A stretch of 64,000 nucleotides of DNA from Filifactoraceae bacterium (lineage in GTDB: Bacteria; Bacillota; Clostridia; Peptostreptococcales; Filifactoraceae). The notes under the pieces are model-generated. The model worked only from the letters and a program-made list of their open reading frames with translations, was not told the origin of the DNA and did no database searches. Location: positions 867 through 64,866 of the forward strand of contig JBGZSM010000069.1 in the NCBI GenBank assembly GCA_041853585.1, given 5' to 3'. The translations under genes and the position numbers were made by a program. This document shows, in pieces, positions 7,449 to 62,451 of this stretch (its first letter is position 1; every line of letters begins with the position of its first letter).

Positions 7449-7476
7449 AATATCCATCCTTTTCCAATTGAAGCGA

Positions 7477-8313
7477 CTACCGATGCTCTTCGCTCGGCAC
7501 CAAGTCAATCACCACATATTCCGGACGATTGTAAAAACGCGGAATTCTTGTCGATTCTCTCGCCAATCCGCGACTGACAATCATCTTGTAATTCTCAAAT
7601 TCATACAGCCCGCCCGCATATTTCGGAAACAATCCCTGATTCGGTGCGAGCAATCCGTTGAGCACACCGGGAATTCGCCATTGTCCTCCATGAGCATGCC
7701 CTGCCATCAAGAGATCAAAATCGCGATATTGCTCGTAGCGCTCCGGACGATGAGTCAGCAGAAGCGAATAGATGTCGGGCTCGATTGTTGACTTGGCTTT
7801 TTCCAGTTGATTTTGCCAAGCGGACTCCCCGATATCGACATCATCGATGCCGAACAAATTGACGCGCTCTCCGCGAATGTTCAGTTCCACTTTGTCGCCT
7901 TCAAGCACCGTGATATTGTAATCGAGAATCGCAGATTTTAATCGAAGCAGCTCCTTTGTCCAACATTCATGATTGCCCGACACATAGTAACTCGGATATT
8001 TTTCTCCCGCCCAGCTCAAAAATTCCCATGCCTTGTCCTCTGGCAAATTGTCGTCGATGATATCGCCCGCGAGGAGCAGCACATCGGGTCTGCTCTGCTC
8101 GATGGCTTCGGTCAAAGTATGCTGTTTTTCTCCGTAATTGCAGCTGTGCAAATCCGCAACGAGCGCAATTCGAATCGGTTTTTGAATTCTTGAATCGGCG
8201 ATGGTGTAGTTCACCACCTCAAGTCGTTGGTCCAATCCCATGCCCAGCAGCAAGGCAGCCGCTCCGGCAACCACCAACATTCGTTTATTCTTTCTTCTTT
8301 TGTTCTTCTTCAT
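7477..8313 (-). CDS. Membrane-anchored metallophosphoesterase (calcineurin-like, YkuE/YaeI type)
   Basis: N-terminal basic plus transmembrane segment, then the motifs IALVADLH, AGDIID, SGNHE and GHAHGGQ. Confidence 0.8.
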   Translation of the reverse strand: MKKNKRRKNKRMLVVAGAAALLLGMGLDQRLEVVNYTIADSRIQKPIRIALVADLHSCNYGEKQHTLTEAIEQSRPDVLLLAGDIIDDNLPEDKAWEFLSWAGEKYPSYYVSGNHECWTKELLRLKSAILDYNITVLEGDKVELNIRGERVNLFGIDDVDIGESAWQNQLEKAKSTIEPDIYSLLLTHRPERYEQYRDFDLLMAGHAHGGQWRIPGVLNGLLAPNQGLFPKYAGGLYEFENYKMIVSRGLARESTRIPRFYNRPEYVVIDLVPSEEHR

Positions 8314-8354
8314 CTTGCTCCCACTCTGCTGAATCTCATTTTGCGAAATTCAGC

Positions 8355-9779: not shown

Positions 9780-9837
9780 TCCCTTCCTCACTTTATTCAC
9801 TACTCCCGTTGCATTGTATCATATTTTTGTAGAATTT

Positions 9838-10800
9838 TTATAGTTTCATACAATGAATTTCACTTCTCTCCCCTCGATGCTCCAATCGCCTAGCAAGAAT
9901 ATCCAAAATTTTTCGCGGTAAATACCGGGAAGCGATATGCAGATGCAGCGCCTTCTCCCGCGCACCGACACGCAATTTCGAATATGCCGTCGTCTGCCCG
10001 AGATGAATTTTGTCAAACCCTTCGCCGAGTTTTAAAATCTCCAGCAGAATATTTATATACAAATCATATTTTTTGTTCTGAGCATGTGCAAAGCCGCAAA
10101 AGAGAAAAATCAGCTCCTTGTCGAAGGCTCTGGTTTGGAAAAAACCGATGAGCTCCTTTTTTTCATTTGAGATTCGATACAGATTCGCATCGCATCTTTT
10201 GAAAAAATCGATGCCGAGCTTTTCCAGCTTCCCCTCGGAGCGCTCATAGACTTCTTCATAAAAAGCATAGAGTTTCTCATCGAAATTTGACGGATGAATG
10301 GATTCAAACACAAGATTTTTTCCTCTGTCCATCGCCTTACGAATTCGGTAGCGATAGTGGCTGCGCATCTTGCTCAAATAAATTTCAAAATCGTCCACCA
10401 CCGTGTGAAAACTCGGCAGGGTCTTACCCTTGGCAAGCCGAAGTCCTCCATCGGTGTTAAGCACGAGCAGCAGCGCAAAGCTCGAAAGATATTTTTCCAA
10501 TATCGGCAAATTCTCCCTCGGGCAAGCATACCCGGCGCTCGCGACCGAAAGCGGAATGCCGGCAATTTCTATCGGCAAACGAAGCGATAATGTTTGGCTG
10601 AAGGTCAGAATATCCAATTTCAAACGATAAGTAATGAGCAGGATTTGATATTTTTCATGGAAATGATATCGCTGATGACAGGGATTGACCTCCTCCATAA
10701 AACTCAAAAATTCTCTTTTCAAAAAAGGATTGCTCGAGCATTCATCCCAACGAGCCGGCAAATCCTTCGCGCTGTCAAAAATCACAAATTCCGTCTTCAT
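9838..10800 (-). CDS. FemAB-like / DUF482-type GNAT-fold acyltransferase
   Basis: N-terminal W..C..NPFLKREFLSFMEE signature, and a C-terminal half resembling the BioF2/FemAB-like acyltransferase fold. ATGA overlap with the upstream GNAT gene. Confidence 0.5.
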   Translation of the reverse strand: MKTEFVIFDSAKDLPARWDECSSNPFLKREFLSFMEEVNPCHQRYHFHEKYQILLITYRLKLDILTFSQTLSLRLPIEIAGIPLSVASAGYACPRENLPILEKYLSSFALLLVLNTDGGLRLAKGKTLPSFHTVVDDFEIYLSKMRSHYRYRIRKAMDRGKNLVFESIHPSNFDEKLYAFYEEVYERSEGKLEKLGIDFFKRCDANLYRISNEKKELIGFFQTRAFDKELIFLFCGFAHAQNKKYDLYINILLEILKLGEGFDKIHLGQTTAYSKLRVGAREKALHLHIASRYLPRKILDILARRLEHRGERSEIHCMKL

Positions 10801-11867
10801 AGATTGATTTCAAACACTTTGTAATGCTTGCTTTCTTTTTTTATAAAATGAGTTGTCACATTTTTGGAGCTTGAATTGTCATCCAATATCCAGCCCGACT
10901 CGATGAAACGGTATTTTTCTTTGTTGAGCTCATAGCAATGCTTGAGCAGCGCATAGAGCGCCGCCGAGCGACGGTACTTCGGGATGATGCCGAATTCCGT
11001 AAACTTCAGCGTATCAATCAGCCCCGGCAGGAATCGGCTCTTCAAAAAGGCCATCAATCCCAGTTCCTGTCCTCCGCTGATGAGCTGATTGAAATCGGGA
11101 TACCAAAGAATGAATCCGACCGGCAAATCATCCTTGTAGGCGAAAAGCAAATTTTCCGGTTTCAAAAAGAGTTTGTATTCATTAAACAGCTCGATATCTT
11201 CCGCCTCTCTGCTCTCATAATAATATTCATGCTCGGCGAATGCGAGATTGTTGATTCTCCCGTAAATCTTGGCCGTCTTTTCGATATGTTGAAAATCCGC
11301 ATGGCGAACTTCAAACTGCGCCATTCGTTGCTCCAGCGCGGGCGATGGATTGAGCTTGATGTCCTCAATCAACCCTTTGTAGCTCACGAGATTTTTTGTC
11401 GTCGTCGCCAATTTTTCCAAATGCTCGGTATAATATGCGGGATTGTACGCGCTGCCGATGCTCTGCACTTTGTCAAAATCGCTCGCAAGCAGACCCAAAC
11501 CATAGTTGACATGAAAATTGAGTCCGATGAGAATGCTTCGAATCCGTCGTTCTTTTGCAAATTCCTTGGCGAAATCGACGATGGCTTTGGCAATCTCAAA
11601 ATCATTTCTCATTTCCAAAAAAGCGATTTGCAACTTGTCCGCCATTCTGTCAATCACCGCCAAAAATGCCATGCCTACGATTTGATTATTTTTCTCCGCC
11701 ACAATCGGCACGATTTCGGATTTTTTCTGAATCTCCATCTTTCCGGCGAACAATGCTTTCAGCGTTCTGCTCTGATGGTCCCGATAATTTGAATTGCCTC
11801 GATAGATTTCCTTTTGAAAATGCAGCATCGCTACAAAATCCTCCGGCTTTGCGAATCGTACAATCAT
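10797..11867 (-). CDS. Long (~356 aa) GNAT-family acyltransferase, paralog of 26913-27977
   Basis: Shared architecture and the YNP.YY motif with the second copy. GNAT-like C-terminal half (GIIPKYRRSAALYALL). First gene of the radical SAM operon. Confidence 0.6.
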   Translation of the reverse strand: MIVRFAKPEDFVAMLHFQKEIYRGNSNYRDHQSRTLKALFAGKMEIQKKSEIVPIVAEKNNQIVGMAFLAVIDRMADKLQIAFLEMRNDFEIAKAIVDFAKEFAKERRIRSILIGLNFHVNYGLGLLASDFDKVQSIGSAYNPAYYTEHLEKLATTTKNLVSYKGLIEDIKLNPSPALEQRMAQFEVRHADFQHIEKTAKIYGRINNLAFAEHEYYYESREAEDIELFNEYKLFLKPENLLFAYKDDLPVGFILWYPDFNQLISGGQELGLMAFLKSRFLPGLIDTLKFTEFGIIPKYRRSAALYALLKHCYELNKEKYRFIESGWILDDNSSSKNVTTHFIKKESKHYKVFEINL

Positions 11868-12740: not shown

Positions 12741-13487
12741 CTATCCGAGCTCTCCATCCGTCATATCTTCGACGAGATGACGCCAATAATATTTCGGCAA
12801 ATTGCTCTGCTGCAATTTTTTATTTTGACGCTCGCGAATCGAAATGCTTTTATGAAAAACATTCCACAAAAATGCGTATTCCAATTCGGCATCGCTCCAC
12901 TTGATTTCGACTTTTTCGGTAAAAAATAAATCGATGCGCTGTCCGTCATAGTATGCGAGCATATTTCTTTTTTTGTCATAGATAGCAAATCGCTCTCGCA
13001 CCAGTCGATTTTTAAAATGGGAAAGCAGTATCGGCAACACATTATTTTTCGGCTCAATGGTCGAAAACAATGTGCCGTCGTGCATTTCTCGAAATCGCAG
13101 AAGTCCCAGATAGCGATGACGCTCACGCAACACATTGCGCACCAACTTGTTCATTTGCAAGGCATATTCGTCCACCGATTCCAAAATCCCTTCTCCACAT
13201 TCCATCGCCCGAAAAATCATCCGCACGATGATTTCGTCTTTGTGCGGCTCGCAGGACAAAAAACAGGCTTGCAAATCCGCAAAAAATTGATACGAAAATT
13301 TTTCGCGCAGATATTTTTCAACGCGCCGCGCTTTTTCAACATCGGTCGCCACATAGATTTCGCTCGTGTCAAAGGCGAGCTGCTCCGGCTCGGCGCTGAT
13401 TCTTCCTAGTTCTTTACGGTGTTTGTAGGATTCAAAGACGACGCTCAACAGACCGTCAAAATCCCCGTCATAGTAATAATGATACAT
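12741..13487 (-). CDS. DUF4130 / TIGR03915-type probable DNA metabolism protein
   Basis: MYHYYYDGDFDGLLSVVFESYK N-terminus and RF.E..DG.L....EP...V C-terminal half. It overlaps the stop of the radical SAM partner gene. Confidence 0.7.
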   Translation of the reverse strand: MYHYYYDGDFDGLLSVVFESYKHRKELGRISAEPEQLAFDTSEIYVATDVEKARRVEKYLREKFSYQFFADLQACFLSCEPHKDEIIVRMIFRAMECGEGILESVDEYALQMNKLVRNVLRERHRYLGLLRFREMHDGTLFSTIEPKNNVLPILLSHFKNRLVRERFAIYDKKRNMLAYYDGQRIDLFFTEKVEIKWSDAELEYAFLWNVFHKSISIRERQNKKLQQSNLPKYYWRHLVEDMTDGELG

Positions 13488-14767
13488 TACTCCCCTCCAT
13501 TTCCCAATAATGAAGCGGCATTTGCTTTGTCAAAAAAACCGATTTGCTGAACCGCAGGCTTTTCTCCTTCGAGCAAAAGATTTCGGATGCTGCTCGGATT
13601 TTCCTTATACAAACCGTAATATTTCCCATCGACCGTAATAAAATACTTCGCGCGTTTGAGCACCACGCCGATTTTCTTCAAATGCTCGTATTGAATTTTA
13701 CTATGCTTTCGCGCTTTGATGATGCGCAGCGCTGAAGTGACACCCAAACCGGGAATGCGTAGCAAATCATTATAGGACGCCGTATTGATCTCCATCGGGA
13801 AGCGATGCCAGTTGTGAATCGCCCAATTCGCCTTCGGGTCGAGCAGCGGGTCGAAAAAAGCATTCTGCTCGCTGAGCAATTCGTCGGCGCGAAATTTATA
13901 AAACCGCAGCAACCAATCCGCTTGATACAGGCGATGCTCACGAAGCATCGGCGCAGCACCGACATGAGCCAGCGCGCCCGTTTTGTTCACCGGAATGTAG
14001 GCGGAATAATACACTCTTTTGAGTCCGAAACCATTGTAAAGTTGCTCGCTCTTGTTTAAAATCGTGTAATCGCTTTCGCCGCTCGCGCCGATAATCATCT
14101 GCGTCGTCTGTCCCGCCGGCACAAAACTCGGCGTGCTCTTAAACAATGCTTTCTCCTGAAAGCGCTGAATCTGATGACTATAAATCCGGCTCATCGATGT
14201 GATGATGTCGCTCACTTTTTTATCCGGTGCAAGCAGCTGCAGTCCCTGATTGTCCGCCATCTCAACATTCACCGAGACTCTGTCGACATACATGCCCAAG
14301 GTCTGTATCAATTCTTGGCTCGCTCCCGGAATCACCTTCATGTGAATGTAGCCGTTGAATTTTTCTTCGACGCGCAATCGTCGGGCAACGGCAATCAATC
14401 TTTCCATCGTGTAATCCGGATTTTTCAAAATGCCGGAGCTTAAAAAAAGTCCTTCGATATAATTTCGACGATAGAAGTTGATGGTCAAATCGACGATTTC
14501 ATCCGGCGAAAGTGTCGCCCGCTCGATATCGTTGCTGCGTCGGTTGACGCAATAAGCGCAATCGTAAGCGCAATGATTGCTCATCAATATTTTGAGCAAT
14601 GAAATGCATCGCCCGTCCGCCGACCATGAATGACAGATGCCGCTCTTTGCCGCGTTTCCGATTCCATCCGTCGTATTTTTTCGCTCGCTGCCGCTGGATG
14701 AGCAAGACACATCGTATTTTGCCGCGTCGCTGAGAATTCTTAACTTGTCCTGTGTCGATTGATTCAT
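13487..14767 (-). CDS. Putative DNA modification/repair radical SAM protein (HhH C-terminus)
   Basis: DAAKYDVSCSSSG...CAYDCAYCVNR radical SAM motif, with a C-terminal LLRIPGLGVTSALRIIKAR helix-hairpin-helix. The start ATG at 14767 is supported by the RBS aaggaggag. Confidence 0.8.
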   Translation of the reverse strand: MNQSTQDKLRILSDAAKYDVSCSSSGSERKNTTDGIGNAAKSGICHSWSADGRCISLLKILMSNHCAYDCAYCVNRRSNDIERATLSPDEIVDLTINFYRRNYIEGLFLSSGILKNPDYTMERLIAVARRLRVEEKFNGYIHMKVIPGASQELIQTLGMYVDRVSVNVEMADNQGLQLLAPDKKVSDIITSMSRIYSHQIQRFQEKALFKSTPSFVPAGQTTQMIIGASGESDYTILNKSEQLYNGFGLKRVYYSAYIPVNKTGALAHVGAAPMLREHRLYQADWLLRFYKFRADELLSEQNAFFDPLLDPKANWAIHNWHRFPMEINTASYNDLLRIPGLGVTSALRIIKARKHSKIQYEHLKKIGVVLKRAKYFITVDGKYYGLYKENPSSIRNLLLEGEKPAVQQIGFFDKANAASLLGNGGE

Positions 14768-15193
14768 TTGCTCCTCCTTGCTCAATTTCCGGATTCGAAT
14801 CGGGATTGCAGACGGACTTTACCGCCTCCGTTGATTTATATATCCAATTAAACTTGATTTCGAATCTCGCTTCTTTTCCATTCCGTATTTACTTTTACAT
14901 TTCACTTGCAATTGTGATTTCGGTTTTCTATTCGATTCTTATTCCGATTTAAAGTGCACTCACTTTTCGAAAAAATTCATCCGCAACTTTTCCCGAAAAT
15001 ACATCATAACTATTCTTTTTAATTTCTTTTTTTCTTATATTTTTCCGTTTACGATATTATATCACGCGAAAAAGAAAAAAACCGGAAATCTTGAAAATTT
15101 TTTCGATAAATTTTTTGAAAGGCTTGCCAAGGATATTTTTTTGCGATACTGTTAAAGAAAGGAATACGAAAAAATTTATAAGGACGGAGAACT

Positions 15194-16406: not shown

Positions 16407-17477
16407 TTATTTTGTCTTTGATTTCTCTTTCAGCCATTTGGAAATAAGTGGAGCGACTTCTTTTTTCGCTTTGGAACTCACATACATTCCGATATGTCCC
16501 GTCGGTATTCCGTGAGTCTCAATATCTTTCGTTCCGACATATTTTGCAAGCGGAATACTTGCAGCCGGCGGCACGATATGGTCTTTTTCCGCATATACAT
16601 TGAGTACGGGCATTGTGATATTTTTCAAATCCACCTTCGCATCGCCAATCATCATCTTGCCTTTAATCAATTTGTTTTCTTTGTAAAGGTCATTGATGAA
16701 TTGTCGAATTGTTTCTCCCGCTTGACCCGGACTGTCAAAAATCCAGTTCTCCATACGCAGGAAGTTGTTCATCACTTCCGGTTTGTCAAAGTCATCAATG
16801 AGGTTGAGATATTTTCCAACCATCAGCGAAATCGGCTTCATTGTCAAGAATCCGTTGTTCATAAAATCGCCCGGAATGACTCCGTACGCATCGACCATCT
16901 TGTCAATGTCCAGATATTTTCCCCATCGGAACAACAATCCGTCATCCGTTGAGAAATCCACCGGTGCAACCATCGTTACCAACGCATTGATATTTTGCGG
17001 ATGAAGTGAAGAGTACATTAAAGAGAAAGTTCCGCCCTGACATACGCCGAGCATATTGATTTTCTCTTTTTTGGAATGTGCCTTGACCGCCTCGACCGCA
17101 TTATCGATATAGCCTTGAATATAATCTTCCAAAGTCAGATATCTGTCTTCCGCTGTCGGATATCCCCAGTCGATAATATACAGATCCTGCCCGTCTCTGA
17201 GCATATTCTGCACAAAGCTCGTATCTTCCTGCAAGTCCATCATGGTCTCGCGATTTACCAAAGCATAGACAATCAGAGTCGGTACTTTGTTGATGCTTCG
17301 AACAAGCGGTTTGTATCGATACACTTTCATCTTGTCTTCCGAATAAATCAATGTTTTCTCGGAGAAACCCGGCTCCGGGTCTCCTGCATGAAGCATCGTT
17401 TCAAATCCCTCAAGCAATTTTTTCTGAGTTTGTATGCTTTCCTCAAAGCTTTTCTTCCAATCAAATGTTTTGTCCAT
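16407..17477 (-). CDS. phaC: Class III poly(R)-hydroxyalkanoate synthase catalytic subunit
   Basis: About 355 aa alpha/beta hydrolase with the lipase-box-like GVCQGG (Cys nucleophile) and a conserved C-terminal H (TGHIGMYVS). Confidence 0.8.
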   Translation of the reverse strand: MDKTFDWKKSFEESIQTQKKLLEGFETMLHAGDPEPGFSEKTLIYSEDKMKVYRYKPLVRSINKVPTLIVYALVNRETMMDLQEDTSFVQNMLRDGQDLYIIDWGYPTAEDRYLTLEDYIQGYIDNAVEAVKAHSKKEKINMLGVCQGGTFSLMYSSLHPQNINALVTMVAPVDFSTDDGLLFRWGKYLDIDKMVDAYGVIPGDFMNNGFLTMKPISLMVGKYLNLIDDFDKPEVMNNFLRMENWIFDSPGQAGETIRQFINDLYKENKLIKGKMMIGDAKVDLKNITMPVLNVYAEKDHIVPPAASIPLAKYVGTKDIETHGIPTGHIGMYVSSKAKKEVAPLISKWLKEKSKTK

Positions 17478-17507
17478 TAAAAATTCTCCCTTCAAGATAC
17501 ACATAAT

Positions 17508-18806
17508 CTACTCCTGAGTCTGAACCGGAACAACGGCCTGCGCTTTTTTCATTGCTTTCAGTTCTTTTTTCAATTCGTAAATCGTTTTATACAGGCTGTC
17601 AATCTCACTTCTTGTCACGATTGGTGTATCCGAGAGATATCTTTCAACCAATTTTTGCATCTCGATTTTGTAATCCATCGCCGCAGAAGAAAGTTGACCC
17701 AACATCTTCGCATATTCCGGAGTGGCAAAGTAAGAATCGAAAACCCCTTCCAATTCATTGGACCAGTAAGTGTAGAACTCATTGAAAGTTTTTGGCTGTG
17801 TTCCCTGCTCCGCCATTTCAAGATACTTTTTAATCATATCATCCAGATTCTCATTTTGCACCGCAAAAATTCTGGAAGTGAAATCCGTACTGAGCAATAC
17901 CATATCCACATAGGTGTCAAAAGCCTTGCTCTGTTGCTCAATAAGCTCCTTGTTTATGCCCAGCGAAGGAGAAAGCAAAATCGCTCCGAAAGTTCTGTCA
18001 AACTGTGCTCGCCAAAGCTCAAAGAACTCGCCGAGTTTGGTTTTGTCCGTCAGCACACCTTCAACGAACAAATCACGAAGCTGTTTTGCATTGCTTGTCC
18101 ACGGCTCAAAGAAATTGCCATTTGTTTTTGCATACGCTTTGAACAGCTCAAACGGATCTTTAGCAAAAGATTGGAACTCCTGAGGAAGCATCGGCAATAC
18201 CATATCTTTGAACATCACATCATATTTTTCAGCTAAAGTGGATGCATATTTTTTCACTTCATCGGAAATCGGTTTGATATGCGTATCTTCCAACTCTTTC
18301 CAGAACTTATATACATTCAGATAATATGTGTTCGCCTGCATCATTTTTTCCAGTAAATCTTTCGCCGCCGGGGTAAATGCCTTACCCATCTCCAGCGGAT
18401 TGTAATATCCTCTCAGCTTGTCAAAATATTCGTGGATGCTCTCCTGAGACTCTGCCCATTTGCTCATATCTACAAATGGAAAAGCGCCGGACTTTCCGAA
18501 GTTGGAAAAATCGGCCATATATTTGGACATCTGCTCCATATAATTCTTTTGCATATCCACGAAAAACTCAAATGCTTTCGGGTCAAAAGCCGGATTCTTA
18601 AAGTAATCCGTAAAAATCTTGCTCAACTCCGCCGGATTGTTTGTCCCCATCGTTTCCATAAATTTCTTTTGCATTTCAAAAAAGTCGCTCATAGATTTTG
18701 TATAAGGATTCTCGGAAACATTGGACATCTTTTTATACATATCCTGCCAAGATTCCATCATACTCTTTTGGCTATCCATCATCGTTTTGAAAAAATCATT
18801 GCTCAT
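17508..18806 (-). CDS. phaE: PhaE-like subunit of class III PHA synthase
   Basis: Immediately upstream of phaC. A repetitive F/W/M-rich helical protein with a C-terminal coiled segment (RSEIDSLYKTIYELKKELKAMKK), as in PhaE. Confidence 0.5.
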   Translation of the reverse strand: MSNDFFKTMMDSQKSMMESWQDMYKKMSNVSENPYTKSMSDFFEMQKKFMETMGTNNPAELSKIFTDYFKNPAFDPKAFEFFVDMQKNYMEQMSKYMADFSNFGKSGAFPFVDMSKWAESQESIHEYFDKLRGYYNPLEMGKAFTPAAKDLLEKMMQANTYYLNVYKFWKELEDTHIKPISDEVKKYASTLAEKYDVMFKDMVLPMLPQEFQSFAKDPFELFKAYAKTNGNFFEPWTSNAKQLRDLFVEGVLTDKTKLGEFFELWRAQFDRTFGAILLSPSLGINKELIEQQSKAFDTYVDMVLLSTDFTSRIFAVQNENLDDMIKKYLEMAEQGTQPKTFNEFYTYWSNELEGVFDSYFATPEYAKMLGQLSSAAMDYKIEMQKLVERYLSDTPIVTRSEIDSLYKTIYELKKELKAMKKAQAVVPVQTQE

Positions 18807-53894: not shown

Positions 53895-54377
53895 TTATTT
53901 ATGATAGATTTCGTTCGCATTGATTTTGCACGCACGATAAATTTGCTCCAACAACATCACACGAAACAGTTGATGCGGAAAGGTCATTTGGCTGAAACTG
54001 ATTTTCATATCGCCACGCTCCCTCACCGCATCACCCAGTCCGAGACTTCCGCCAATCAACAGCGTCAAATTGCTCACGCCTTGAACCGCTTTTTGCTCAA
54101 ATAGTTCGGCAAAACCCTCCGAAGTCATCGCCTTTCCCTCCGGCGACAACAAAATGACAAATTCATTTTCTTTGATTTTGGAAAGCATGCGTCTCGCTTC
54201 CGCATCCTTGACCTGCTCTTCTTCCTTCGCCGATGCCTTTTCCGACAATTTTTCTTCCGGCAATTCCAAAACACTCAGTTTGGCAAAACGACTCAAACGC
54301 TTTTGATATTCCTCACTCGCCGCCTGCCAAAAACTCTCTTTCAATTTCCCTATCGCTATAATTTTTATGCTCAACAT
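53895..54377 (-). CDS. rlmH: 23S rRNA (pseudouridine1915-N3)-methyltransferase
   Basis: IKIIAIGKLKE...YQKRL...LLIGGSLGL...SFSQMTFPHQL.RVML.EQIYRA. Confidence 0.85.
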   Translation of the reverse strand: MLSIKIIAIGKLKESFWQAASEEYQKRLSRFAKLSVLELPEEKLSEKASAKEEEQVKDAEARRMLSKIKENEFVILLSPEGKAMTSEGFAELFEQKAVQGVSNLTLLIGGSLGLGDAVRERGDMKISFSQMTFPHQLFRVMLLEQIYRACKINANEIYHK

Positions 54378-54766
54378 TATTCGTAATCATCCTCATAAAT
54401 CGGTTCGTAAAAATCTTCTTCATAATCATACTCGAATCGTCGTTGATTTTGCCGATGCTCTTCCTCCCAATACGCTTTGCGCTGAGGATTTCCGGATTGC
54501 TCGAACCGCTCCATAAGCTCAGATTGCTCTTTGAAATACTGCTCCTCTTTCATCTGCTCAATCACTGCATCAATATGACGCTCCAACATCGGATTCGGCT
54601 TCTTGTCCAAATCACTCGCGCCCTCCGGCATTTTTCCCGCCGGATTTGGCAATGCATCCTCTTTTTGATGCCCGCGCATATCCATTGTGTTTTCAGATTC
54701 GTCGACAGCTTTGGCTTGAACTTGCTTCTCTCTATCGACGCCTTCATTTTTCTCTATCTTTTTCAT
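54377..54766 (-). CDS. Acidic hypothetical protein
   Basis: RBS gagaggag precedes the ATG at 54766. 129 aa, E/D/Y-rich C-terminus. Confidence 0.45.
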   Translation of the reverse strand: MKKIEKNEGVDREKQVQAKAVDESENTMDMRGHQKEDALPNPAGKMPEGASDLDKKPNPMLERHIDAVIEQMKEEQYFKEQSELMERFEQSGNPQRKAYWEEEHRQNQRRFEYDYEEDFYEPIYEDDYE

Positions 54767-54911
54767 CACAAACTCCTCTCTCAAGTAGTTGTTCTTACTT
54801 TGATTATACGATTTTTCAGGCGCAATTACAAGCCAAAGCGAACGCAAATAAAAAGTCACTGCTCAAAACTCCTTGGACTGTCATTTCAAATCAGGACTTT
54901 TCAAACAGTGA

Positions 54912-55538
54912 CTATCTTTCGTTAAGTCGAATGGAGAATGTTTTTTCCGCCACCTCAAACGCTTTCTCAACCGGAAGGCAATAAGTGTTTTCCTTATCCT
55001 CCTCCGCAATACCGTTATAATACTCTTCCATGTGTTTCTTTGAACCAAAGAAATTCATGATATTTCAACAATTTGCCGCCCAATTTTCTACTTTTGATAA
55101 ATCAACATGGATGGCACATAATGAGTGTGGCTGATACTCCGTCAATTCCCCATTGCAAATTGAAACTTGGATTTTCTCGCCGGAAACGGGACATACCGAC
55201 TCAATATTGATATCCTGATTGAATACAAATGCCGAACCCATCGCATCAATTGCGCACATTGAATAGAATTCTCTTCCGTCCTTAAGCTTTACATGATGAC
55301 TGGTCGGTAAATTGGACACCGGATATGCAAATAGAATCTCTTCGCCGTCCGTTACAATAGTTTCCTTCTCTATCAGGCTATCGATGATACTGCGATTATC
55401 TCCGCAAAATTTTTCCTCCGTAAGCGGTTTTCGTTTCTCAATCATCGCATTGAGCAATTCGATGCGAAGCTTACTTTCTTTTTCATCTAATTTCGCATCA
55501 ATGTTAATGACCTTTTCTAAATCAATTTTCGTATTCAC
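54912..55538 (-). CDS. MerB-like organometal lyase, candidate selenoprotein (in-frame UGA at 55065-55067, C-U motif)
   Basis: FYSMCAIDAMG aligns with MerB YAWCALDTL (Cys/Asp). The track ORF stops at ...WAANC-TGA, but the same frame continues for 50 codons: NIMNFFGSKKHMEEYY...PVEKAFEVAEK. That matches MerB [9 protein letters not shown]...VHEAFGLGQ. GTG start at 55538 overlaps the ATPase stop. Confidence 0.75.
55035..55053 (-). promoter_or_regulatory. SECIS-like hairpin for the MerB-like UGA
   Basis: Minus strand: tttcttt-GGTTC-aaagaaa, starting 11 nt after the TGA. Confidence 0.6.
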
Positions 55539-56290
55539 ACAATTACTCCCTTTTCTGAAATTTTTTGAACCAGTTTCATGCAATAGTCCTTATATTGCTC
55601 ACAGTAGCGATTGCGTGGTCTCGGAAGATTATTTTCCAATTCATATACAATCTTTCCTGCATTCGTTGACATCAAAATAACTTTATCACTCAAATATACT
55701 GCCTCATCCACATCGTGCGTTACCATGAGTGCGGTAATCTTTTCTTCACGCCAAATATTTTCAATCTCCATCTGGAGCGATTGGCGCATCATCAAATCCA
55801 ATGCTCCAAGCGGTTCATCCATCAATAAAACCTTCGGCTTACTTGCCAAAGCTCGAACCAAAGCCGTTCTCTGTTTCATTCCACCTGATATCTGATGAGA
55901 ATATAATTCTTCATGTCCTTTTAATTTAGAAATCTCCAACAGATATTCCAGCCTTTGCCGTTGTTCATTATCCGGAATCTTCATTTGTTTCATCGGGAAC
56001 AAAATATTGTCTTTGACCGTCATCCAAGGGAACAACGCATAGTTCTGGAATACAAATGCTCTATCGGGATTCGGACCATTTATTATGTCGCCATCCAATT
56101 TCACCATTCCCGAATCGCTTTTTTCAAATCCGGCAATTATTGAAAGCATTGTTGTTTTTCCACATCCGGATGGACCGAGTAATGTTACAAACTGCCCCTC
56201 TTCTAAAGTGAATGAAATATTTTCCAGCACTTTCTTATGTTTGTTTTGATTTTTAAATGTCTTTGATATATTATTTACTTCCAGTTTCAT
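55535..56290 (-). CDS. ABC transporter ATP-binding protein (nitrate/sulfonate/taurine NitT-type)
   Basis: GPSGCGKTT, ISGGMKQR and LLMDEPLGALD motifs. The ATG at 56290 forms an ATGA overlap with the permease stop. Confidence 0.85.
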   Translation of the reverse strand: MKLEVNNISKTFKNQNKHKKVLENISFTLEEGQFVTLLGPSGCGKTTMLSIIAGFEKSDSGMVKLDGDIINGPNPDRAFVFQNYALFPWMTVKDNILFPMKQMKIPDNEQRQRLEYLLEISKLKGHEELYSHQISGGMKQRTALVRALASKPKVLLMDEPLGALDLMMRQSLQMEIENIWREEKITALMVTHDVDEAVYLSDKVILMSTNAGKIVYELENNLPRPRNRYCEQYKDYCMKLVQKISEKGVIV

Positions 56291-57054
56291 GATACAAATC
56301 TCCACTTGGTAAGATATCTATTTGTTATTTGTAAAAGAATATCAATCGCATATCCTATAATAGCTGACATAAACATCAGCGCAATCAGCACATCGGTTTG
56401 CATCATCGATTGTGCTTCCACCATTGAGTAGCCCAGACCGGCACTTGTCGCTATGAACTCCGCTCAGATTACTGACATCCATCCGCTGCCGATTGCCAAT
56501 CTCGCTCCTACTAGAATATCCGGTAACGCTCCGGGTATCACCACATTCCAAAAAATGCTCCATTTCCCGGCGCCCATACTTTTAGCTGCATTATAATAGT
56601 CTTTGGAAATATTTGATACCCCTTGATTCGTATTCAATATTACTTGGAACAGACCATTGATTGCAATCATGAAAAGAGTTGGTCCATCTCCAATTCCCAA
56701 CCAGATAATTGTAAGAGGAACCCATGCCATCATCGGAATTTGACGAAGAGAATTCATCAGGCCACCAAAAACATAATTAAATTTTTTTGATAAGCCCATT
56801 CCGATTCCTAAAGGGATACCGATGATAAGTGCAATTAACCATCCTTTCAATACGCGTACCATAGTAATTCCAACATTGGTCATAATTTTTAAATCAAAGA
56901 TACTTTGAAAAAATGCTTTTGCCGTTGCATACGGCGTCGGTAAAAGTAATGGAATGGCGATTCTTTTTGCCGCAATGTACCATCCAAGCAACAAAATGCA
57001 GTAAAAAGCTAATTTCAAAATAGCATCTTTATAGTTGATTTTTAGATTCTGCAT
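56287..57054 (-). CDS. ABC transporter permease (SsuC/TauC type) interrupted by an in-frame TGA at 56464-56466; Sec-recoded or a pseudogene
   Basis: ...AIGSGWMSVI-TGA-AEFIATSAGLGYSMVEAQSMMQTDVLIALMFMSAIIGYAIDILLQITNRYLTKWRFVS, all in one frame. The gene ends in an ATGA overlap with the ATPase start. Confidence 0.6.
56427..56445 (-). promoter_or_regulatory. SECIS-like hairpin for the permease UGA (weaker)
   Basis: Minus strand: agtgcc-GGTCTG-ggc(t)act, starting 18 nt after the TGA. It overlaps the conserved AGLGY codons, so it may be coincidental. Confidence 0.35.
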
Positions 57055-57818
57055 TATTTTATTGTCAGTAGTTTTACTTTCCAATCTTTTATCCTCTCCT
57101 CCTTTAAGTTCGTATAATTTGCAATTTGTCTTTGCATTTCCAACGAATCTTCATTAAGAATATTCACCGCTTTGTTGTAGGCTTTAACAAAGTTTTTGTA
57201 TTCCTTTGTTCCGATATAGTTTTTATCCGCAACCAATACAAAAGTGTCATTAAGCATCGGATAGTCGGTCTCTCCACTCAAGCTTCCACTCTTGGCAACA
57301 TCTAAAAAAACAGCATCCACTTGACCGCTTTCATAAGCATAGCCCAATGCATTACGACCGGTTTGATGAATTTCTATTGTTTTTTCAAATTTCGCCCTTA
57401 AATATTCTTCATGGAACATTTTATTTTCTTGAATTGCAATGCTCTTTATTTTGTCATTCCTTTTTATAATGACATCCGTATTTTGAAATAGCGGACATAC
57501 AACTACAAGGTCTGAATTCGATTGTGTAAGATTACTTGCCGCATCTTTACATAATATCGCCATGGAATAAATATCTGTGCTCAATGCCCATTGAGCCGTT
57601 TTTGCTCAACAGTCCCGAATGAAGAACGGTTTTACTTTCCCCTCCGTGTAAATTTCGTTGTGAATCATATAATCCACCACAAAACCGGACATATCATCCG
57701 AGACCCCTATTGCTACTTGATTTTCAGTATTGTTTTTTTGATTCAAATTTTGATGGTAAACAAAGAAACTCATGCCTATCAACACAAAAATCAAAAATAC
57801 ACTACGATTCAATTTCAT
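57054..57818 (-). CDS. Membrane-anchored periplasmic-binding-like protein, candidate selenoprotein (in-frame UGA at 57606-57608, C-U motif)
   Basis: Track ORFs 57606-57842 and 57054-57584 are in the same frame: ...KVKPFFIRDC-TGA-AKTAQWALSTDIYSMAILCKDAASNL... The signal anchor is present only in the upstream piece. TAATG overlap with the permease start. Confidence 0.65.
57579..57596 (-). promoter_or_regulatory. SECIS-like hairpin for the binding-protein UGA
   Basis: Minus strand: gctcaat-GGGC-attgagc (perfect 7-bp stem), starting 9 nt after the TGA. Confidence 0.6.
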
Positions 57819-58914
57819 TTGCCTTTTTTTCAAATTCCTCAAAAGTCATTCCTACCGGAAAATCCTTTTCAATTTTCTCTTGAATGTATTTGTCAAAATC
57901 ATCCAGTCCCGCGTCGTTATAGATATCTCTTTCTATAACATCCTCAACCGGCGGTAAAGTCTTCACCAAATTGTATTTTTTATACACCTCATAAGCATGA
58001 TTAAACTGCTTTTCATTTAACTGCCAAGTAAGCGTTCTTCCTTCTTCATTGCATTTTTTATAAATGGTCATCAATGATACTTCGTACGGCACATTATAGT
58101 ATTGTGAAAAAATCTCTGCCGCTTTTTTGGGATGTTCATAGATATATTTAATACTGTCCTGATGCGCCTTCAAAAGTTCGACAGCAAGTTCTCTATGCTC
58201 TTTAATGAAGTTTTTGTTCAATGCAAATCCGCAACAAATCCCCATTTCATCATCCATGTCACGATAAGTTGCCATTATTTTCCCAACCTTTTGATGCTCC
58301 GCCATCGAGCCCCAAGGGTCACAACAGGTATATCCTTTTATCTGGCCGGTACTCAAAGCCAAAAAACTGTCCGAATCCGAGCCGGTATTAACCAATTCAT
58401 AGTCTTCTGCTTTTGTTGAGAGATTAAGAATCTGAGAATATCCCGCAAGCCAATCCTCACTTGTTGAGGGGGCGCCCATCGCAACTTTTTGACCATATAA
58501 ATCTTCCGGTTTTTTAATATCATTGGACACAACCAGATACATTGAGCCGCCGATATGATTGTTTGCCGCATAAACAATCGGAGAACCTTCTCCGTTTGCC
58601 GCAACCAATCCTCGCGCGCCGATATATCCGGCATCCATTTGTCCTGCAGCCATCGCCTGTGGAACTTTGCCGTTTCCGGTCAACTTTACTTTGAGATTAT
58701 GGGCTTTATATATTCCCGCCGCTTCTCCAACCGGTCCTGCAACCATGTGGTCACAATTGTAGTAGCCCAAATTAATCTCATAATCACTGTTCACATCCGT
58801 CTGTTCCGGCGGTGTGCTGCTATTGGAATCTCCGCCTTGATTGCTTTTGCTGCATCCAAAAAATCCCGTTACCAAAATCATGCTCAATAATATAGTTGCT
58901 ATTTTTCTTTTCAT
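57802..58914 (-). CDS. Cys-rich ABC substrate-binding lipoprotein (NMT1/SsuA-like)
   Basis: Lipobox VTGFFGC. NMT1-like fold pattern with unusual Cys clusters: YYNCDHM, GYTCCDPWG, MGICCGFAL. Confidence 0.7.
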   Translation of the reverse strand: MKRKIATILLSMILVTGFFGCSKSNQGGDSNSSTPPEQTDVNSDYEINLGYYNCDHMVAGPVGEAAGIYKAHNLKVKLTGNGKVPQAMAAGQMDAGYIGARGLVAANGEGSPIVYAANNHIGGSMYLVVSNDIKKPEDLYGQKVAMGAPSTSEDWLAGYSQILNLSTKAEDYELVNTGSDSDSFLALSTGQIKGYTCCDPWGSMAEHQKVGKIMATYRDMDDEMGICCGFALNKNFIKEHRELAVELLKAHQDSIKYIYEHPKKAAEIFSQYYNVPYEVSLMTIYKKCNEEGRTLTWQLNEKQFNHAYEVYKKYNLVKTLPPVEDVIERDIYNDAGLDDFDKYIQEKIEKDFPVGMTFEEFEKKANEIES

Positions 58915-58922
58915 ATTGCCTC

Positions 58923-59396
58923 CTAACAACAATTGTCCATATCCTCACTAAACAAATCTCGAACTGTCATATCCGCTTGCATGCGATAAATGGCATATCC
59001 GTAATTTCCATCTTTCGAGCCTGATATTATAAATTCGATAGGCTCTTTTTCATCAATGTTTTTAAACTGAATATCTACATTCTCTCTTGGGGCTAAAAAC
59101 TTTTCCGTCGCTTGATATTGTGTATTATCTTTATTGAGCAGTACTACCGCATAATTTTTTTCTTCTTCTTGAGGATGGTATATGACCAACAAATCTTTTT
59201 TCCCGTCATCATTCACATCTTCACTTTTTGCCATCAGCAAATCATAATTTTTATTTGTTTCTAAAAAATGAATGAGGTAAGGATGGTCTTTTTCTCCAAA
59301 ATCATTATTTTCCTGAATGGATTTGTTTCGACTATAAAGCTGAAAGCCTACCACAAAAATGACGAAAACTGCAATAATTTTTTTCAGTTCTTTCAT
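58923..59396 (-). CDS. Membrane-anchored protein with an FG-GAP-like DxDxDG motif and a C-terminal Cys-Cys
   Basis: N-terminal transmembrane segment, DVNDDGKKDLLV, and a C-terminus ending ...DMDNCC-TAG. ATGA overlap with the upstream permease gene. Confidence 0.5.
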   Translation of the reverse strand: MKELKKIIAVFVIFVVGFQLYSRNKSIQENNDFGEKDHPYLIHFLETNKNYDLLMAKSEDVNDDGKKDLLVIYHPQEEEKNYAVVLLNKDNTQYQATEKFLAPRENVDIQFKNIDEKEPIEFIISGSKDGNYGYAIYRMQADMTVRDLFSEDMDNCC

Positions 59397-60478
59397 TGCA
59401 ATCTCCTTTTCTCTATATAACTCATGATTCTATGATACATTGCCAGCGCAAAGAATATCAGAATAACGGATGAAGCTGCATAACGAAATCCCGTCGGGAA
59501 AATAACTATCAACCGATTGGCACTTTGAATTGAATAGTCGATTGTATCAATACTTATCTGCGGTTTATAACTCGGCATCAAAATTAAATTCGTAATATAG
59601 CCTAGAACAACAGCCATCGCCGTAACAACTCCACCGTAAATGATTGCCGATCGCTTCCCTATCATTCGATAAATACTGATTAGTTCCGCGATATTGGTAG
59701 ATGCGCCCGCAATCAAAAAAGTTACTGCAGAACCCGGTGACGCTCCCGCTGCAATCAGGGCAGCAATAAACGGAATATGACCGACCGCACAAACATACAT
59801 TACCGTTGCCAATATCGCTACATTTAATAATGACAATGCACTTGGATTTCCTAAATATTTCTGAATTACGGATGATGGAAAAGTTACCATAATGAATCCG
59901 GCTACAAACATCCCTGTAACAACATATTTACTTATTACTAAAGCAAAATCGTTCACCATCCAAACAAATCCCGATTTTATTTTTTCAGGTATGCTTCTAG
60001 TATCCATCCGCTCACTCATCTCGATATTTTGAGAATAAGCCTGTGGATAATACAATTCTTTTCCGGCGGTGCTGTTTGCAATCCATCCAATCATCATCGG
60101 AAAAATTAAACCAATTACAAAATATATTGCGGTCAGTTCTTTCCCAAATAATCCGTACGACAAAATCAGCGCAATCGGATTGATAACCGGCGTGGATGTC
60201 ATAAAACAAAGTACCGGACCGATATAAGCGCCGGAATAATACATACTGATTCCCAACGGAACGGTTCCGCAACTGCAAATAGGCAAGACAAATCCCGACA
60301 GTGTAACTTTCATCAAAGCTGAAAAACTCTTATTCCCCAAATGATGATGCAGCTTTTCGACAGGAATTAAATCATGCAGAATCGCTGCGATGAGGTAGCT
60401 GATTACAATCCAAGAAGACGCGGTGTTCAATAAATTAAAAGAAACGCGAAGAATATTCCAAAGATACTCTCTCATCAT
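59393..60478 (-). CDS. ArsP-like / DUF318-type permease
   Basis: Polytopic protein with two homologous halves and an LPICSCGTVPLG motif in the first half, typical of this permease family. ATGA overlap with the thioredoxin-like gene. Confidence 0.65.
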   Translation of the reverse strand: MMREYLWNILRVSFNLLNTASSWIVISYLIAAILHDLIPVEKLHHHLGNKSFSALMKVTLSGFVLPICSCGTVPLGISMYYSGAYIGPVLCFMTSTPVINPIALILSYGLFGKELTAIYFVIGLIFPMMIGWIANSTAGKELYYPQAYSQNIEMSERMDTRSIPEKIKSGFVWMVNDFALVISKYVVTGMFVAGFIMVTFPSSVIQKYLGNPSALSLLNVAILATVMYVCAVGHIPFIAALIAAGASPGSAVTFLIAGASTNIAELISIYRMIGKRSAIIYGGVVTAMAVVLGYITNLILMPSYKPQISIDTIDYSIQSANRLIVIFPTGFRYAASSVILIFFALAMYHRIMSYIEKRRLQ

Positions 60479-60750
60479 CCATCTCCTCCTTCATTCAATT
60501 TTGAAACGGCGTCATCAATAGCTCGGTCAATCATCATTTTGTTGGGATTTTTAATAAATATTTTTTCATCAATTATCAAAGTTCCAACATAAATCATGCC
60601 ATACTTTTTTATGTATTCCATATCCCTTCCTGCATAATACAATTTTAAATCAATTTTTTCTTTGTATCTGGCTGCTGAAGATTGAACCAATCTTCCAATC
60701 GAATCACAGGATGGTCATGTATTCACAAATTCCACTTTTACTTTTTTCAT
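60475..60750 (-). CDS. Small thioredoxin-fold protein (redox-active disulfide protein 2 / Thioredoxin_3 type), candidate selenoprotein with UxxC (UGA at 60715-60717)
   Basis: RBS aagagga precedes the ATG at 60750. Translation: MKKVKVEFVNT-TGA-PSCDSIGRLVQ...KYGMIYVGTLIIDEKIF. The track ORF 60475-60690 is the same frame downstream. The UPSC sits exactly where this family carries CxxC. Confidence 0.7.
60677..60695 (-). promoter_or_regulatory. SECIS-like hairpin for the thioredoxin-like UGA
   Basis: Minus strand: gaagatt-GGTTC-aatcttc (perfect stem), starting 19 nt after the TGA. The loop is identical to that of the MerB-like hairpin. Confidence 0.6.
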
Positions 60751-60975
60751 ATCATCCTCTTAACCTTTAACACTTAATTTTTCCTAATTACAATCTACCA
60801 CAAGAAAATTCAAATTGCTATGTCTATCACAAAATCATCAATCGAAAATTTTTATAAAAAACATAAACTTCATCTATCAATTCGCGTAAAAATTATACAA
60901 AGTTTGCGTCAATCATCTGTACTTTATGACGCTTTTGCGATACAATAGTTTTAATAAAACAATATGGAGGTAATT

Positions 60976-62451
60976 ATGAAGATACAACTACTTGACAATC
61001 TTGAAATCATGCGTGATTACGATTCTTATGTCATTCCATTTAATGCTGATGTGCAATTGGGTGACTTTTTTGATGAAGACTTTAGAGAAATGCTTCAACC
61101 ATATATTGATGCAAAATTGTTTGAAGGAAAAAAAGAGCAGATTTATTCATTCACCAGCTTTTACAAAAATTCGTCCAAACATGTTCACATCGTATTGGTC
61201 GGACTTGGCGCTCATGAAAAATTGAACAATGAAATCGTGATGAATTCTTTTGGAAAAGCGGTAAAGGAGATTCAAAAACTCAAATCCAAAACGCCTATTT
61301 TCATGTTCCAAAATGCGAAAAAAGAACTCAATCATGTCGATAATTTCCTAAAAGCCGTGAAAGCGATGCTTTTGGCGGAATACGGTTTTGAAAAATATCA
61401 AACGAAGGAAGATAAATTGCATGAGCTAGGCGATGTGGCAATTTATACGGAATTTGCGGATGCTCATAAATGCTTGAAGAGAGCGGAAATGCTTGCAGAA
61501 AACATCATCTTGGCGCGTAACTTGGTCAACGAGCCGGCGAATGTTATCAAGCCTGCCAATTTGGCAACTTTGGCGACGGAGGCTCTTGCAGGACTTCCGG
61601 TCGATGTGAAAATTCGCAACAAGTCGGAGATTGAAAAACTCGGCATGAAGGCTTATCTTGCCGTTGCGCAAGGCTCGGATGCGGAGCCGAGATTGATTGT
61701 CATGAACTATCAGGGCAATCCGGGCAGCGACAAAAAATTGGCGCTCGTCGGAAAAGGACTCACTTTCGACAGCGGCGGATATTCCATCAAACCGACGGAC
61801 GGAATGATGAATATGAAAACCGACATGGCGGGCTCGGCTGCAGTTATCGGAGCAATTCGTGCGATTGCACAATCCAAACTCAAAGTCAATGTCGTTGCCA
61901 TCGTCGCTGCAGCGGAAAATATGATTTCCGGTCATTCTTATTTGCCGGGCGACATCATCGGCTCCATGGCGGGCAAAACGATTGAAATCGTCAACACGGA
62001 TGCAGAAGGAAGATTGACTCTCATCGACGCGGTGACTTATGCGATTGAAGAAGAAAAAGCAACAAAAATTGTGGATATTGCAACTTTGACAGGCGCTGTG
62101 CTGGTAGCACTCGGAACGGATTATGCCGGAATTGTGACCAATGATGAAGAATTCTACCAAGTATTCGAAAAAGCGGCAAAGGTTTCGTTTGAAAAAATCT
62201 GGCGTCTTCCACTCGATGATGCGGGCAAAGAGCTCAACAAGTCGAAGATCGCGGATTTGAAAAACTCCGGCGGTCGTTTCGGCGGCTCGCAGGTTGCCGG
62301 TGCTTTTATCGGCGAATTCGTACAGGATATTCCTTGGATTCATGTCGATATCGCAGGCACTTCGGATGTGAGCGAGGACAAACCTTATTGCCGTCGCGGT
62401 GCAACGGGATATGGTGTCGAACTTCTGTTCACCTTAGCGTCCATGCTGTAA
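60976..62451 (+). CDS. pepA: Leucyl aminopeptidase (M17)
   Basis: VGKGLTFDSGGYSIKP, MKTDMAGSAAV and NTDAEGRL motifs. The start at 60976 follows the RBS ggagg. Confidence 0.85.
   Translation: MKIQLLDNLEIMRDYDSYVIPFNADVQLGDFFDEDFREMLQPYIDAKLFEGKKEQIYSFTSFYKNSSKHVHIVLVGLGAHEKLNNEIVMNSFGKAVKEIQKLKSKTPIFMFQNAKKELNHVDNFLKAVKAMLLAEYGFEKYQTKEDKLHELGDVAIYTEFADAHKCLKRAEMLAENIILARNLVNEPANVIKPANLATLATEALAGLPVDVKIRNKSEIEKLGMKAYLAVAQGSDAEPRLIVMNYQGNPGSDKKLALVGKGLTFDSGGYSIKPTDGMMNMKTDMAGSAAVIGAIRAIAQSKLKVNVVAIVAAAENMISGHSYLPGDIIGSMAGKTIEIVNTDAEGRLTLIDAVTYAIEEEKATKIVDIATLTGAVLVALGTDYAGIVTNDEEFYQVFEKAAKVSFEKIWRLPLDDAGKELNKSKIADLKNSGGRFGGSQVAGAFIGEFVQDIPWIHVDIAGTSDVSEDKPYCRRGATGYGVELLFTLASML

Follow-up and report, generated by a model that had tools for sequence, protein, structure and literature searches.

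A predicted selenocysteine-containing SaoT protein, hidden by an in-frame TGA, at the head of an eight-gene sao operon

We analysed a stretch of 64,000 nucleotides from a Filifactoraceae bacterium (contig JBGZSM010000069.1; the whole stretch is hereafter called the window), with a focus on saoT, the first gene of an eight-gene operon, saoTECXBPAL, which extends from position 60750 to position 54912 on the minus strand (Table 1). The saoT frame opens at the ATG 60750-60748 and reads MKKVKVEFVNT, then TGA (60717-60715), PSCDSIGRLVQSSAARYKEK..., up to GGDG and the stop TGA at 60477-60475; the minus-strand sequence around the start codon and the in-frame TGA is ...ttaAAGAGGAtgatATGaaaaaagtaaaagtggaatttgtgaatacaTGAccatcctgtgat.... 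The terminal TGA overlaps, as ATGA, with the ATG (60478) of saoE, which encodes a permease of 361 amino acids. An earlier note on this DNA had proposed this ribosome-binding site, this ATG and this MKKVKVEFVNT-TGA frame, all of which we confirmed base for base, and the ATGA overlap with the permease was found as it had described. It had also placed the gene in the same frame as a mechanically listed open reading frame (ORF) of 71 amino acids (60475-60690), which is indeed the case. This shorter ORF begins at an internal TTG, which lies within a conserved hairpin and has no ribosome-binding site of its own, and it is replaced, as the gene model, by the 91-codon saoT.

Table 1. Features of saoT and of the operon that it heads, in coordinates of the window
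Feature	Coordinates	Strand	Basis or remark
Ribosome-binding site AAGAGGA	60755..60761	minus	4-nt spacer before the saoT ATG; read directly from the sequence
saoT, 91-codon gene, predicted thioredoxin-like selenoprotein, motif U12-P-S-C15	60475..60750	minus	translation, NF040730, Thioredoxin_3 and homologues
In-frame TGA of saoT, predicted selenocysteine codon 12	60715..60717	minus	TGA/Cys column in 56/56 distinct homologues
Predicted bacterial selenocysteine insertion sequence (SECIS) hairpin GAAGAUU-GGUUC-AAUCUUC	60677..60695	minus	lies within codons 19-25, 19 nt past the UGA
saoE, ArsP-type efflux permease, CSC motif	59393..60478	minus	NF040736, 459.2 bits (cutoff 325); Pfam ArsP_1, 154 bits
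saoC, Cys-Cys-COOH protein, ends ...DNCC	58923..59396	minus	NF040734, 159.8 bits (cutoff 80)
saoX, substrate-binding lipoprotein	57802..58932	minus	NF040735, 484.9 bits (cutoff 300)
saoB, predicted substrate-binding selenoprotein, CU motif	57054..57818	minus	NF040727, 195.1 bits (cutoff 140)
In-frame TGA of saoB, after IRDC (CU motif)	57606-57608	minus	translation
saoP, predicted ABC permease selenoprotein	56287..57084	minus	NF040733, 368.4 bits (cutoff 295)
In-frame TGA of saoP, GWMSVI-U-AEF, gating position	56464-56466	minus	translation
saoA, ABC ATPase	55535..56290	minus	NF040729, 397.5 bits (cutoff 360)
saoL, predicted MerB-like lyase selenoprotein, CU motif	54912..55538	minus	NF040728, 164.4 bits (cutoff 140)
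In-frame TGA of saoL, after WAANC (CU motif)	55065-55067	minus	translation

The product of saoT was identified by profile searches, which were run with selenocysteine (Sec) written as Cys. It scored 107.5 bits against the NCBIfam model NF040730, "thioredoxin-like (seleno)protein SaoT" (equivalog cutoff 65), in an alignment that runs across the TGA and covers residues 2-83 of the 91 residues of SaoT and positions 1-82 of the 83 positions of the model. The score against Pfam Thioredoxin_3 (PF13192), 30.4 bits, also exceeded the gathering score of 24.8. By contrast, membership of TIGR00411, the family of the MJ0307 thioredoxin, is rejected, the score being 21.8 bits for a cutoff of 92.75. The gene is almost certainly the SaoT selenoprotein gene.

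The profile of the SaoT family matches the structure of the MJ0307 thioredoxin (1FO5; E = 7e-7), with the Sec column falling on the first Cys of CPHC. As a structure we used the AlphaFold2 model of the homologue P0002, which is 72% identical to SaoT and carries Trp at the Sec position. This model (predicted local distance difference test score of 91.3) displays a thioredoxin fold, with the elements b1 (4-10), a1 (13-27), b2 (33-39), a2 (44-50), b3 (57-60), b4 (64-66) and a3 (71-86), and its position 12 caps the start of helix 1. Foldseek returned many thioredoxins at template modelling (TM) scores of 0.7-0.8, the top match being the thioredoxin-ArsC complex 2ipa. It is therefore strongly supported that the product is a thioredoxin-fold protein of 91 residues, with U12-P-S-C15 at the N-terminus of helix 1. 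The proposal of the earlier note, namely a Sec-containing UxxC protein of thioredoxin fold whose N-terminus had been cut off at the UGA, is borne out by the profile homology that crosses the TGA and by the following comparative data.

A protein search yielded 14 clusters of SaoT homologues, nine of which have Trp at position 12 (P0001-P0008 and P0012) and two of which have Cys (CPCC and CSCC), the three others being stumps of 69-70 amino acids. The DNA was examined for four of the 14 clusters, and in both Trp clusters checked (P0004 and P0012) the Trp corresponds to a TGA translated with code 4. As TGA is a standard stop elsewhere in the window, the Trp at position 12 of SaoT in the catalogues is a gene-caller artefact. 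Directly upstream of each of the three truncated entries lies MxKIKVEFINT-TGA-PSCDS, so that we found none of the homologues that would start at the internal TTG and lack the CxxC-bearing N-terminus, a possibility that had been raised together with the proposal. The entries of metagenome catalogues that have Trp or occur as stumps comprise the clusters P0001-P0008 and P0012 and the loci L058-L061 and L065-L066.

A genome scan (one genome per species) gave 53 loci, which we translated. Nine of them encode UxxC, in the forms UPSC (the clade of the window), USGC (Tissierella and related genomes) and UPGC (two actinobacterial metagenome-assembled genomes, MAGs); about 35 encode CxUC (Lachnospiraceae, Clostridium and Tepidibacter); and nine encode all-Cys forms (CPCC, CSCC and CPSC). 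The alternation of Cys and Sec at the first position of CxxC, which the earlier note had suggested looking for, thus exists, and the CPSC of locus L011 is the exact Cys counterpart of the UPSC of the window. Altogether, positions 12 and 15 are occupied by Cys or Sec in all 56 distinct homologues, in the forms UxxC, CxUC, CxCC and CxxC. The closest SaoT of a cultured organism is that of Johnsonella ignava ATCC 51276 (72% identity).

The hairpin that follows the UGA is exactly the one previously noticed in this sequence, a perfect 7-bp stem with a GGUUC loop, 19 nt past the TGA, and RNAfold closes one further G-C pair in it (8 bp, GUU loop). Our scan defined this class of hairpin by a stem of 6 bp or more, a 4-6-nt loop whose first letters are GG, and a beginning 5-25 nt downstream. 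Such hairpins follow only 1.7% of the minus-strand positions and 2.1% of the TGA triplets of the window. A hairpin alone is weak evidence, and the weight of the case lies in the homology across the TGA and in the comparative data. Over the whole window, GG-loop hairpins whose stem has 6 bp or more are about five times as frequent on the minus strand (53) as on the plus strand (11), a bias that probably reflects gene orientation and G-U pairing.

The comparison of the stems is as follows. First, the GAAGAUU/AAUCUUC stem of the window is GACGAUU/AAUCGUC in Johnsonella, an A-U to C-G swap through one synonymous change in an Arg codon (AGA to CGA) and one in a Ser codon (TCT to TCG). Loci L062 and L067 retain seven pairs with other combinations, and L002 and L058 have one mismatch each. 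Second, codons 19-25 form a hairpin in the CxUC subfamily as well (GACUU-GGUUC-AAGUC being one example), though the UGA of this subfamily lies two codons further 3', so that the spacing between UGA and stem is 19 nt for a UGA at codon 12 (UxxC forms) and 13 nt for one at codon 14 (CxUC forms; homologous codons of L018-L054). Third, five to seven of the seven pairs are in register in the UPSC and most CxUC sequences, as compared with one to four (mean 1.9) in the nine Cys forms. Fourth, in a gap-free alignment of 29 distinct Sec-form sequences tested against 500 shuffles, 81.8% of the stem cells are paired versus 62.4% in the shuffles, the covariation score is 0.519 versus 0.172 (attained by 0/500 shuffles; slid controls, 0.11-0.26) and double changes occur at five of the seven stem pairs, it being understood that relatedness among the sequences inflates these shuffle statistics and that the covariation controls remove this effect incompletely. 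Other Sec forms have equally good hairpins in another register, namely GCUGUAG-AGGCUG-CUGCAGC in Tissierella and CACGCAC-GGACG-GUGCGUG in the actinobacteria. The retention of the hairpin, with covariation, in Sec forms and its absence from Cys forms support its assignment as a putative SECIS element.

In Escherichia coli fdhF, the SECIS hairpin also lies inside the ORF, shortly 3' of the UGA, and a tighter spacing between UGA and hairpin has been reported for E. coli. The saoT hairpin resembles this type in its location within the coding sequence, in its short distance from the UGA and in the G residues at the start of its loop. It differs in that one hairpin position of the saoT family serves UGAs 6 nt apart, and the spacing would therefore be looser than that reported for E. 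coli. It also differs in matching no SECIS family of Rfam: at the gathering threshold Rfam gave no match in the whole window. In the published work on the SaoT family, the SECIS elements had been checked only by eye, the server having failed (Haft & Gwadz, bioRxiv 10.1101/2022.07.06.499078).

The rest of the operon supplies three further in-frame TGAs, in saoB, saoP and saoL, which we translated through these codons before scoring; mechanical ORF calling splits each of these genes in two. All three TGAs fall on the Sec sites published for these families (Haft & Gwadz). The saoB TGA is conserved in L002 and in Johnsonella ignava, and the saoP TGA also in L002 and L004; taken together, all three are found again in both L002 and the isolate Johnsonella ignava ATCC 51276, with 49-79% identity across them (54-79% protein identity between Johnsonella and the window). 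In SaoL, the alignment with the MerB model NF009710 spans residues 52-219 and so continues past the TGA. A hairpin GCUCAAU-GGGC-AUUGAGC begins 9-10 nt after the saoB TGA, and UUUCUUU-GGUUC-AAAGAAA, whose loop is identical to that of saoT, begins 11-12 nt after the saoL TGA. The saoP TGA is followed by a bulged GCC-GGUCUG-GGC hairpin, which was read by eye and failed the hairpin scan; with its bulged U, it resembles the apical GGUC loop of fdhF. Of the operon's four in-frame TGAs, three are thus followed by a GG-loop hairpin, as compared with about 2% in the background. When the window was scanned for further in-frame TGAs with a hairpin behind them, only out-of-frame noise appeared beyond saoT, saoB and saoL.

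As regards the borders of the genes, saoP starts at TTG 57084 or ATG 57054, and saoL probably at GTG 55538, which overlaps the saoA stop, the alternative being TTG 55583. The junctions overlap as ATGA (saoT/saoE and saoP/saoA), TAATG (saoB/saoP) and GTGA (saoA/saoL), in the manner expected of translational coupling. Eight of the nine SAO genes are present: tblastn detected no saoD in the 64-kb window or in L002 and L004, which represent its two closest relatives, and no double-cubane (2-hydroxyacyl-CoA-dehydratase-like) genes in these three either; a saoD at some other place in the genome of the host is possible. In Tissierella (L010), saoD (DsrE-like) lies directly upstream of saoT, and double-cubane genes occur at the actinobacterial locus L015. 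SAO loci need not contain SaoD or SaoL (Haft & Gwadz), and the missing saoD and double-cubane genes are within the published variation.

From these data, it is strongly supported that translation starts at ATG 60750, that UGA 12 is recoded to Sec with the help of the hairpin inside the coding sequence, and that translation ends at the TGA overlapping the saoE start. We infer the Sec decoding capacity of the host from the four conserved, family-typical in-frame TGAs of a single operon; the hairpin would be read by SelB with Sec-tRNA(Sec), the genes for which would lie in another part of the genome. We propose that saoT is co-transcribed and translationally coupled with saoE, and that its U12/C15 selenolate/thiolate pair, rather than serving mainly as a classical disulfide reductase, would bind or hand on the soft metal or organometal handled by the operon. 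This species would enter through SaoXBPA, be cleaved by the MerB-like SaoL and leave through SaoE, with SaoT passing it between SaoL and the SaoE pump. As a whole, the combination of Sec recoding with the handling of a metal is very probably the best explanation of the locus. Taken by itself, a function of SaoT in metal handling, rather than a purely redox one, appears somewhat better than an even bet when judged from its motifs.

Several observations bear on this metal-handling proposal. SaoT has G56 (codon 60583-60585), within VGT, where MJ0307 has its cis-proline, within VPT; this residue precedes the strand 57-60 of the P0002 model. In the 56 SaoT homologues, the same column contains Gly in 22 and Ser in 34, and Pro in none. 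The cis-proline is more conserved across the thioredoxin fold class than CxxC itself, and it possibly prevents the binding of metal at CxxC (PMC2757866, the latter point citing Su et al. 2007). The family-wide replacement of this proline by Gly or Ser, together with the frequent CxCC "cysteine overload", fits metal ligation. An interaction of SaoT with metal was already proposed by Haft & Gwadz, whose description of the family makes no mention of the cis-proline (bioRxiv 10.1101/2022.07.06.499078). Going further, we suggest, tentatively, that SaoT may be a selenolate/thiolate metallochaperone operating from SaoL to SaoE, with the loss of the cis-proline as the switch, and that one hairpin may serve a UGA at codon 12 or 14. 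If so, the fixed hairpin (codons 19-25) would have allowed Sec to shift, over evolutionary time, from one place in the active-site motif to another. The published description of SaoT (Haft & Gwadz) contains neither the metallochaperone and cis-proline point nor that of the shared hairpin.

Besides the relatedness of the compared sequences mentioned above, the following points weigh against the explanation that we prefer. Regarding Sec decoding, neither selA, selB and selD nor tRNA-Sec turned up when ARAGORN and Rfam were run on the whole 64-kb window and Pfam on 20 of its larger ORFs; ARAGORN detected no tRNA at all. Regarding the hairpin, the 61-nt saoT stretch folds no better than its shuffles (z = 0.72), the close relative L058 combines its stem mismatch with an AGUUC loop, and in the Tissierella, actinobacterial and UPTC Sec forms the hairpin is unclear or lies in another register. 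In the region 54500-61000, with E up to 10, Rfam gave three chance-level matches and no SECIS family. The modelled structure is that of the Trp-containing homologue and not that of the window protein, and the metal-binding role is argued from motif logic alone. To our knowledge, experiments have yet to be reported for any member of the SaoT family or of the SAO system. The SAO model calls itself highly speculative (Haft & Gwadz).

The main rival to metal handling is a conventional redox role, in which SaoT, while being a selenoprotein, would bind no metal itself and would work as a thioredoxin- or glutaredoxin-like protein, with U12/C15 cycling between the selenol/thiol and selenenylsulfide forms to re-reduce a partner, such as the CU site of SaoL or SaoB. 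We regard this role as a serious candidate, though less likely than not to be the right one. It agrees with the thioredoxin fold and with the position of Sec on the nucleophilic Cys of CxxC, and Sec-for-Cys thioredoxins and glutaredoxins do exist. In addition, the top Foldseek match is a thioredoxin that reduces a metalloid-handling enzyme, and the nearest solved relative, MJ0307, has been reported to have thioredoxin-like activity (Haft & Gwadz). However, the cis-proline is absent from every SaoT homologue and the sao operon contains no thioredoxin reductase gene. Furthermore, it is very rare for a redox-active thioredoxin to have the commonest motif of the family, CxCC or a CxUC with a third chalcogen (Haft & Gwadz).

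The other rivals concern the identity of the gene rather than its role, and they fare far worse. The earlier note, while right about a UxxC protein of thioredoxin fold, had likened it to the small CxxC proteins of the type "redox-active disulfide protein 2 / glutaredoxin-like", common neighbours of ArsP/DUF318 permeases. Read in this way, the protein would belong to the MTH895/ArsE family (TIGR00412), which accompanies ArsP arsenical permeases, and saoT and the permease would form an arsenic-resistance pair. The protein does have a weak similarity to TIGR00412 and the adjoining permease is indeed of the ArsP/DUF318 type, as the ArsP_1 score indicates. Yet the similarity amounts to 17.9 bits, far below the family's own cutoff of 62, on which ground membership is rejected, whereas the NF040730 score lies far above its own cutoff. 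The permease is SaoE by its equivalog model (NF040736), within a complete sao operon that comprises a MerB-like lyase and an ABC importer, and is not of the ars type. An arsenic-resistance pair is therefore very improbable.

Slightly less credible still is the view that the TGA is a true stop, be it through a pseudogene, an assembly error or a real 71-aa ORF starting at TTG 60690 and lacking CxxC. The source MAG record (JAUNKE010000041.1, GCA_030532905.1) calls no gene at saoT, that is, between the M17 aminopeptidase and saoE, some databases hold the truncated entries of 69-70 amino acids, and the Sec machinery was not seen in the window. Against this, the TGA and the 11 codons that precede it are conserved in independent genomes and metagenomes, the TGA column alternates with Cys, and the hidden Markov model alignment crosses it from residue 2 onwards. 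The TTG lacks a ribosome-binding site and sits in the conserved hairpin, and three more genes of the operon have conserved in-frame TGAs at published Sec sites. As the TGAs of these three genes recur in L002 and in cultured Johnsonella ignava, assembly errors and pseudogenes are ruled out, and we reject a true stop as contradicted by the comparative data. Finally, a reassignment of TGA to Trp (code 4) or Gly (code 25), as the Trp of the nine public clusters might suggest, is practically excluded and was rejected by the use of stop codons in the window, where the code is standard since TGA ends 10 of the 36 long non-overlapping ORFs (saoE, saoA, aspartate-semialdehyde dehydrogenase and homoserine dehydrogenase among them) as well as saoT itself, and the residue aligned in Cys forms is the active-site Cys and not Trp or Gly.

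SaoT made by Sec recoding, as we retain it, is a finding that is real and was correctly interpreted, and that is already known. It is not new, because Haft & Gwadz had already reported SaoT as a family of selenoproteins that comprises UxxC and CxUC forms (bioRxiv 10.1101/2022.07.06.499078; J Bacteriol 2023), and the family and its selenocysteine also figure in a 2026 review. Like the published SaoT (NF040730; C. difficile CD2368, WP_240067706.1), the protein of the window scores above the equivalog cutoff, belongs to the same length class and has Sec at the first position of a CxxC-type motif, which is UPSC here and UPTC, CAUC, CPTC or CPCC in the published forms. Similarly to the C. difficile locus, saoT stands immediately upstream of saoE, and the order saoTECXBPAL is that of C. 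difficile minus saoD; the neighbourhood differs from the published one by the absence of saoD and of the double-cubane genes. The host is an uncultured Peptostreptococcaceae MAG, and its nearest relative for saoT is Johnsonella ignava.

Among characterised thioredoxin-like proteins, the archaeal thioredoxins MJ0307 (1FO5) and MTH807 (1NHO) of TIGR00411 represent a minimal thioredoxin fold of 85 residues and resemble SaoT in a CxxC that aligns residue for residue; MJ0307 differs from it by having Cys instead of Sec and by keeping the cis-proline. SaoT resembles MTH895/ArsE in being a small single-domain thioredoxin-like protein, in exceeding the Thioredoxin_3 threshold and in being paired with an ArsP-type permease, and differs from it by the TIGR00412 score and by the operon context.

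Our additions to the published description are modest: we provide quantitative and comparative support for the SECIS element, note that two Sec positions share one hairpin register, and point out both the lack of the cis-proline and the Trp artefact. The comparative SECIS data and the missing cis-proline provide two testable handles on SaoT. As regards annotation, public catalogues contain SaoT as stumps of 70 residues or as versions with Trp in the active site, and the same operon hides the SaoB, SaoP and SaoL selenoproteins, which makes the sao locus a clean example of the way in which metagenome data lose or corrupt Sec genes. The SAO system of anaerobes, C. difficile among them, is proposed to deal with an organometallic compound, and the presence of a compact eight-gene version in an oral or host-associated lineage (Johnsonella and the Peptostreptococcaceae MAG) extends where this chemistry may occur.

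Other features of the window deserve mention. Directly downstream of saoL, a very acidic ORF of 160 amino acids (54377-54859, minus strand) has no NCBIfam match. Four paralogous genes of B12-binding radical S-adenosylmethionine (SAM) proteins occur on the minus strand (2758-4137, 4080-5453, 6078-7508 and 8355-9800), followed by two ORFs with no Pfam match (9838-10800 and 10797-11867) and by another radical SAM gene (13487-14785, minus strand); the cluster 2758-9800 and the gene at 13487-14785 may represent an uncharacterised modification or biosynthetic cluster. Further on, the minus strand encodes a pair resembling a class III polyhydroxyalkanoate synthase (16407-18806), which consists of a PhaE-type protein (17508-18806) and a PhaC-like alpha/beta-hydrolase (16407-17504) and is unusual for a Peptostreptococcaceae MAG.

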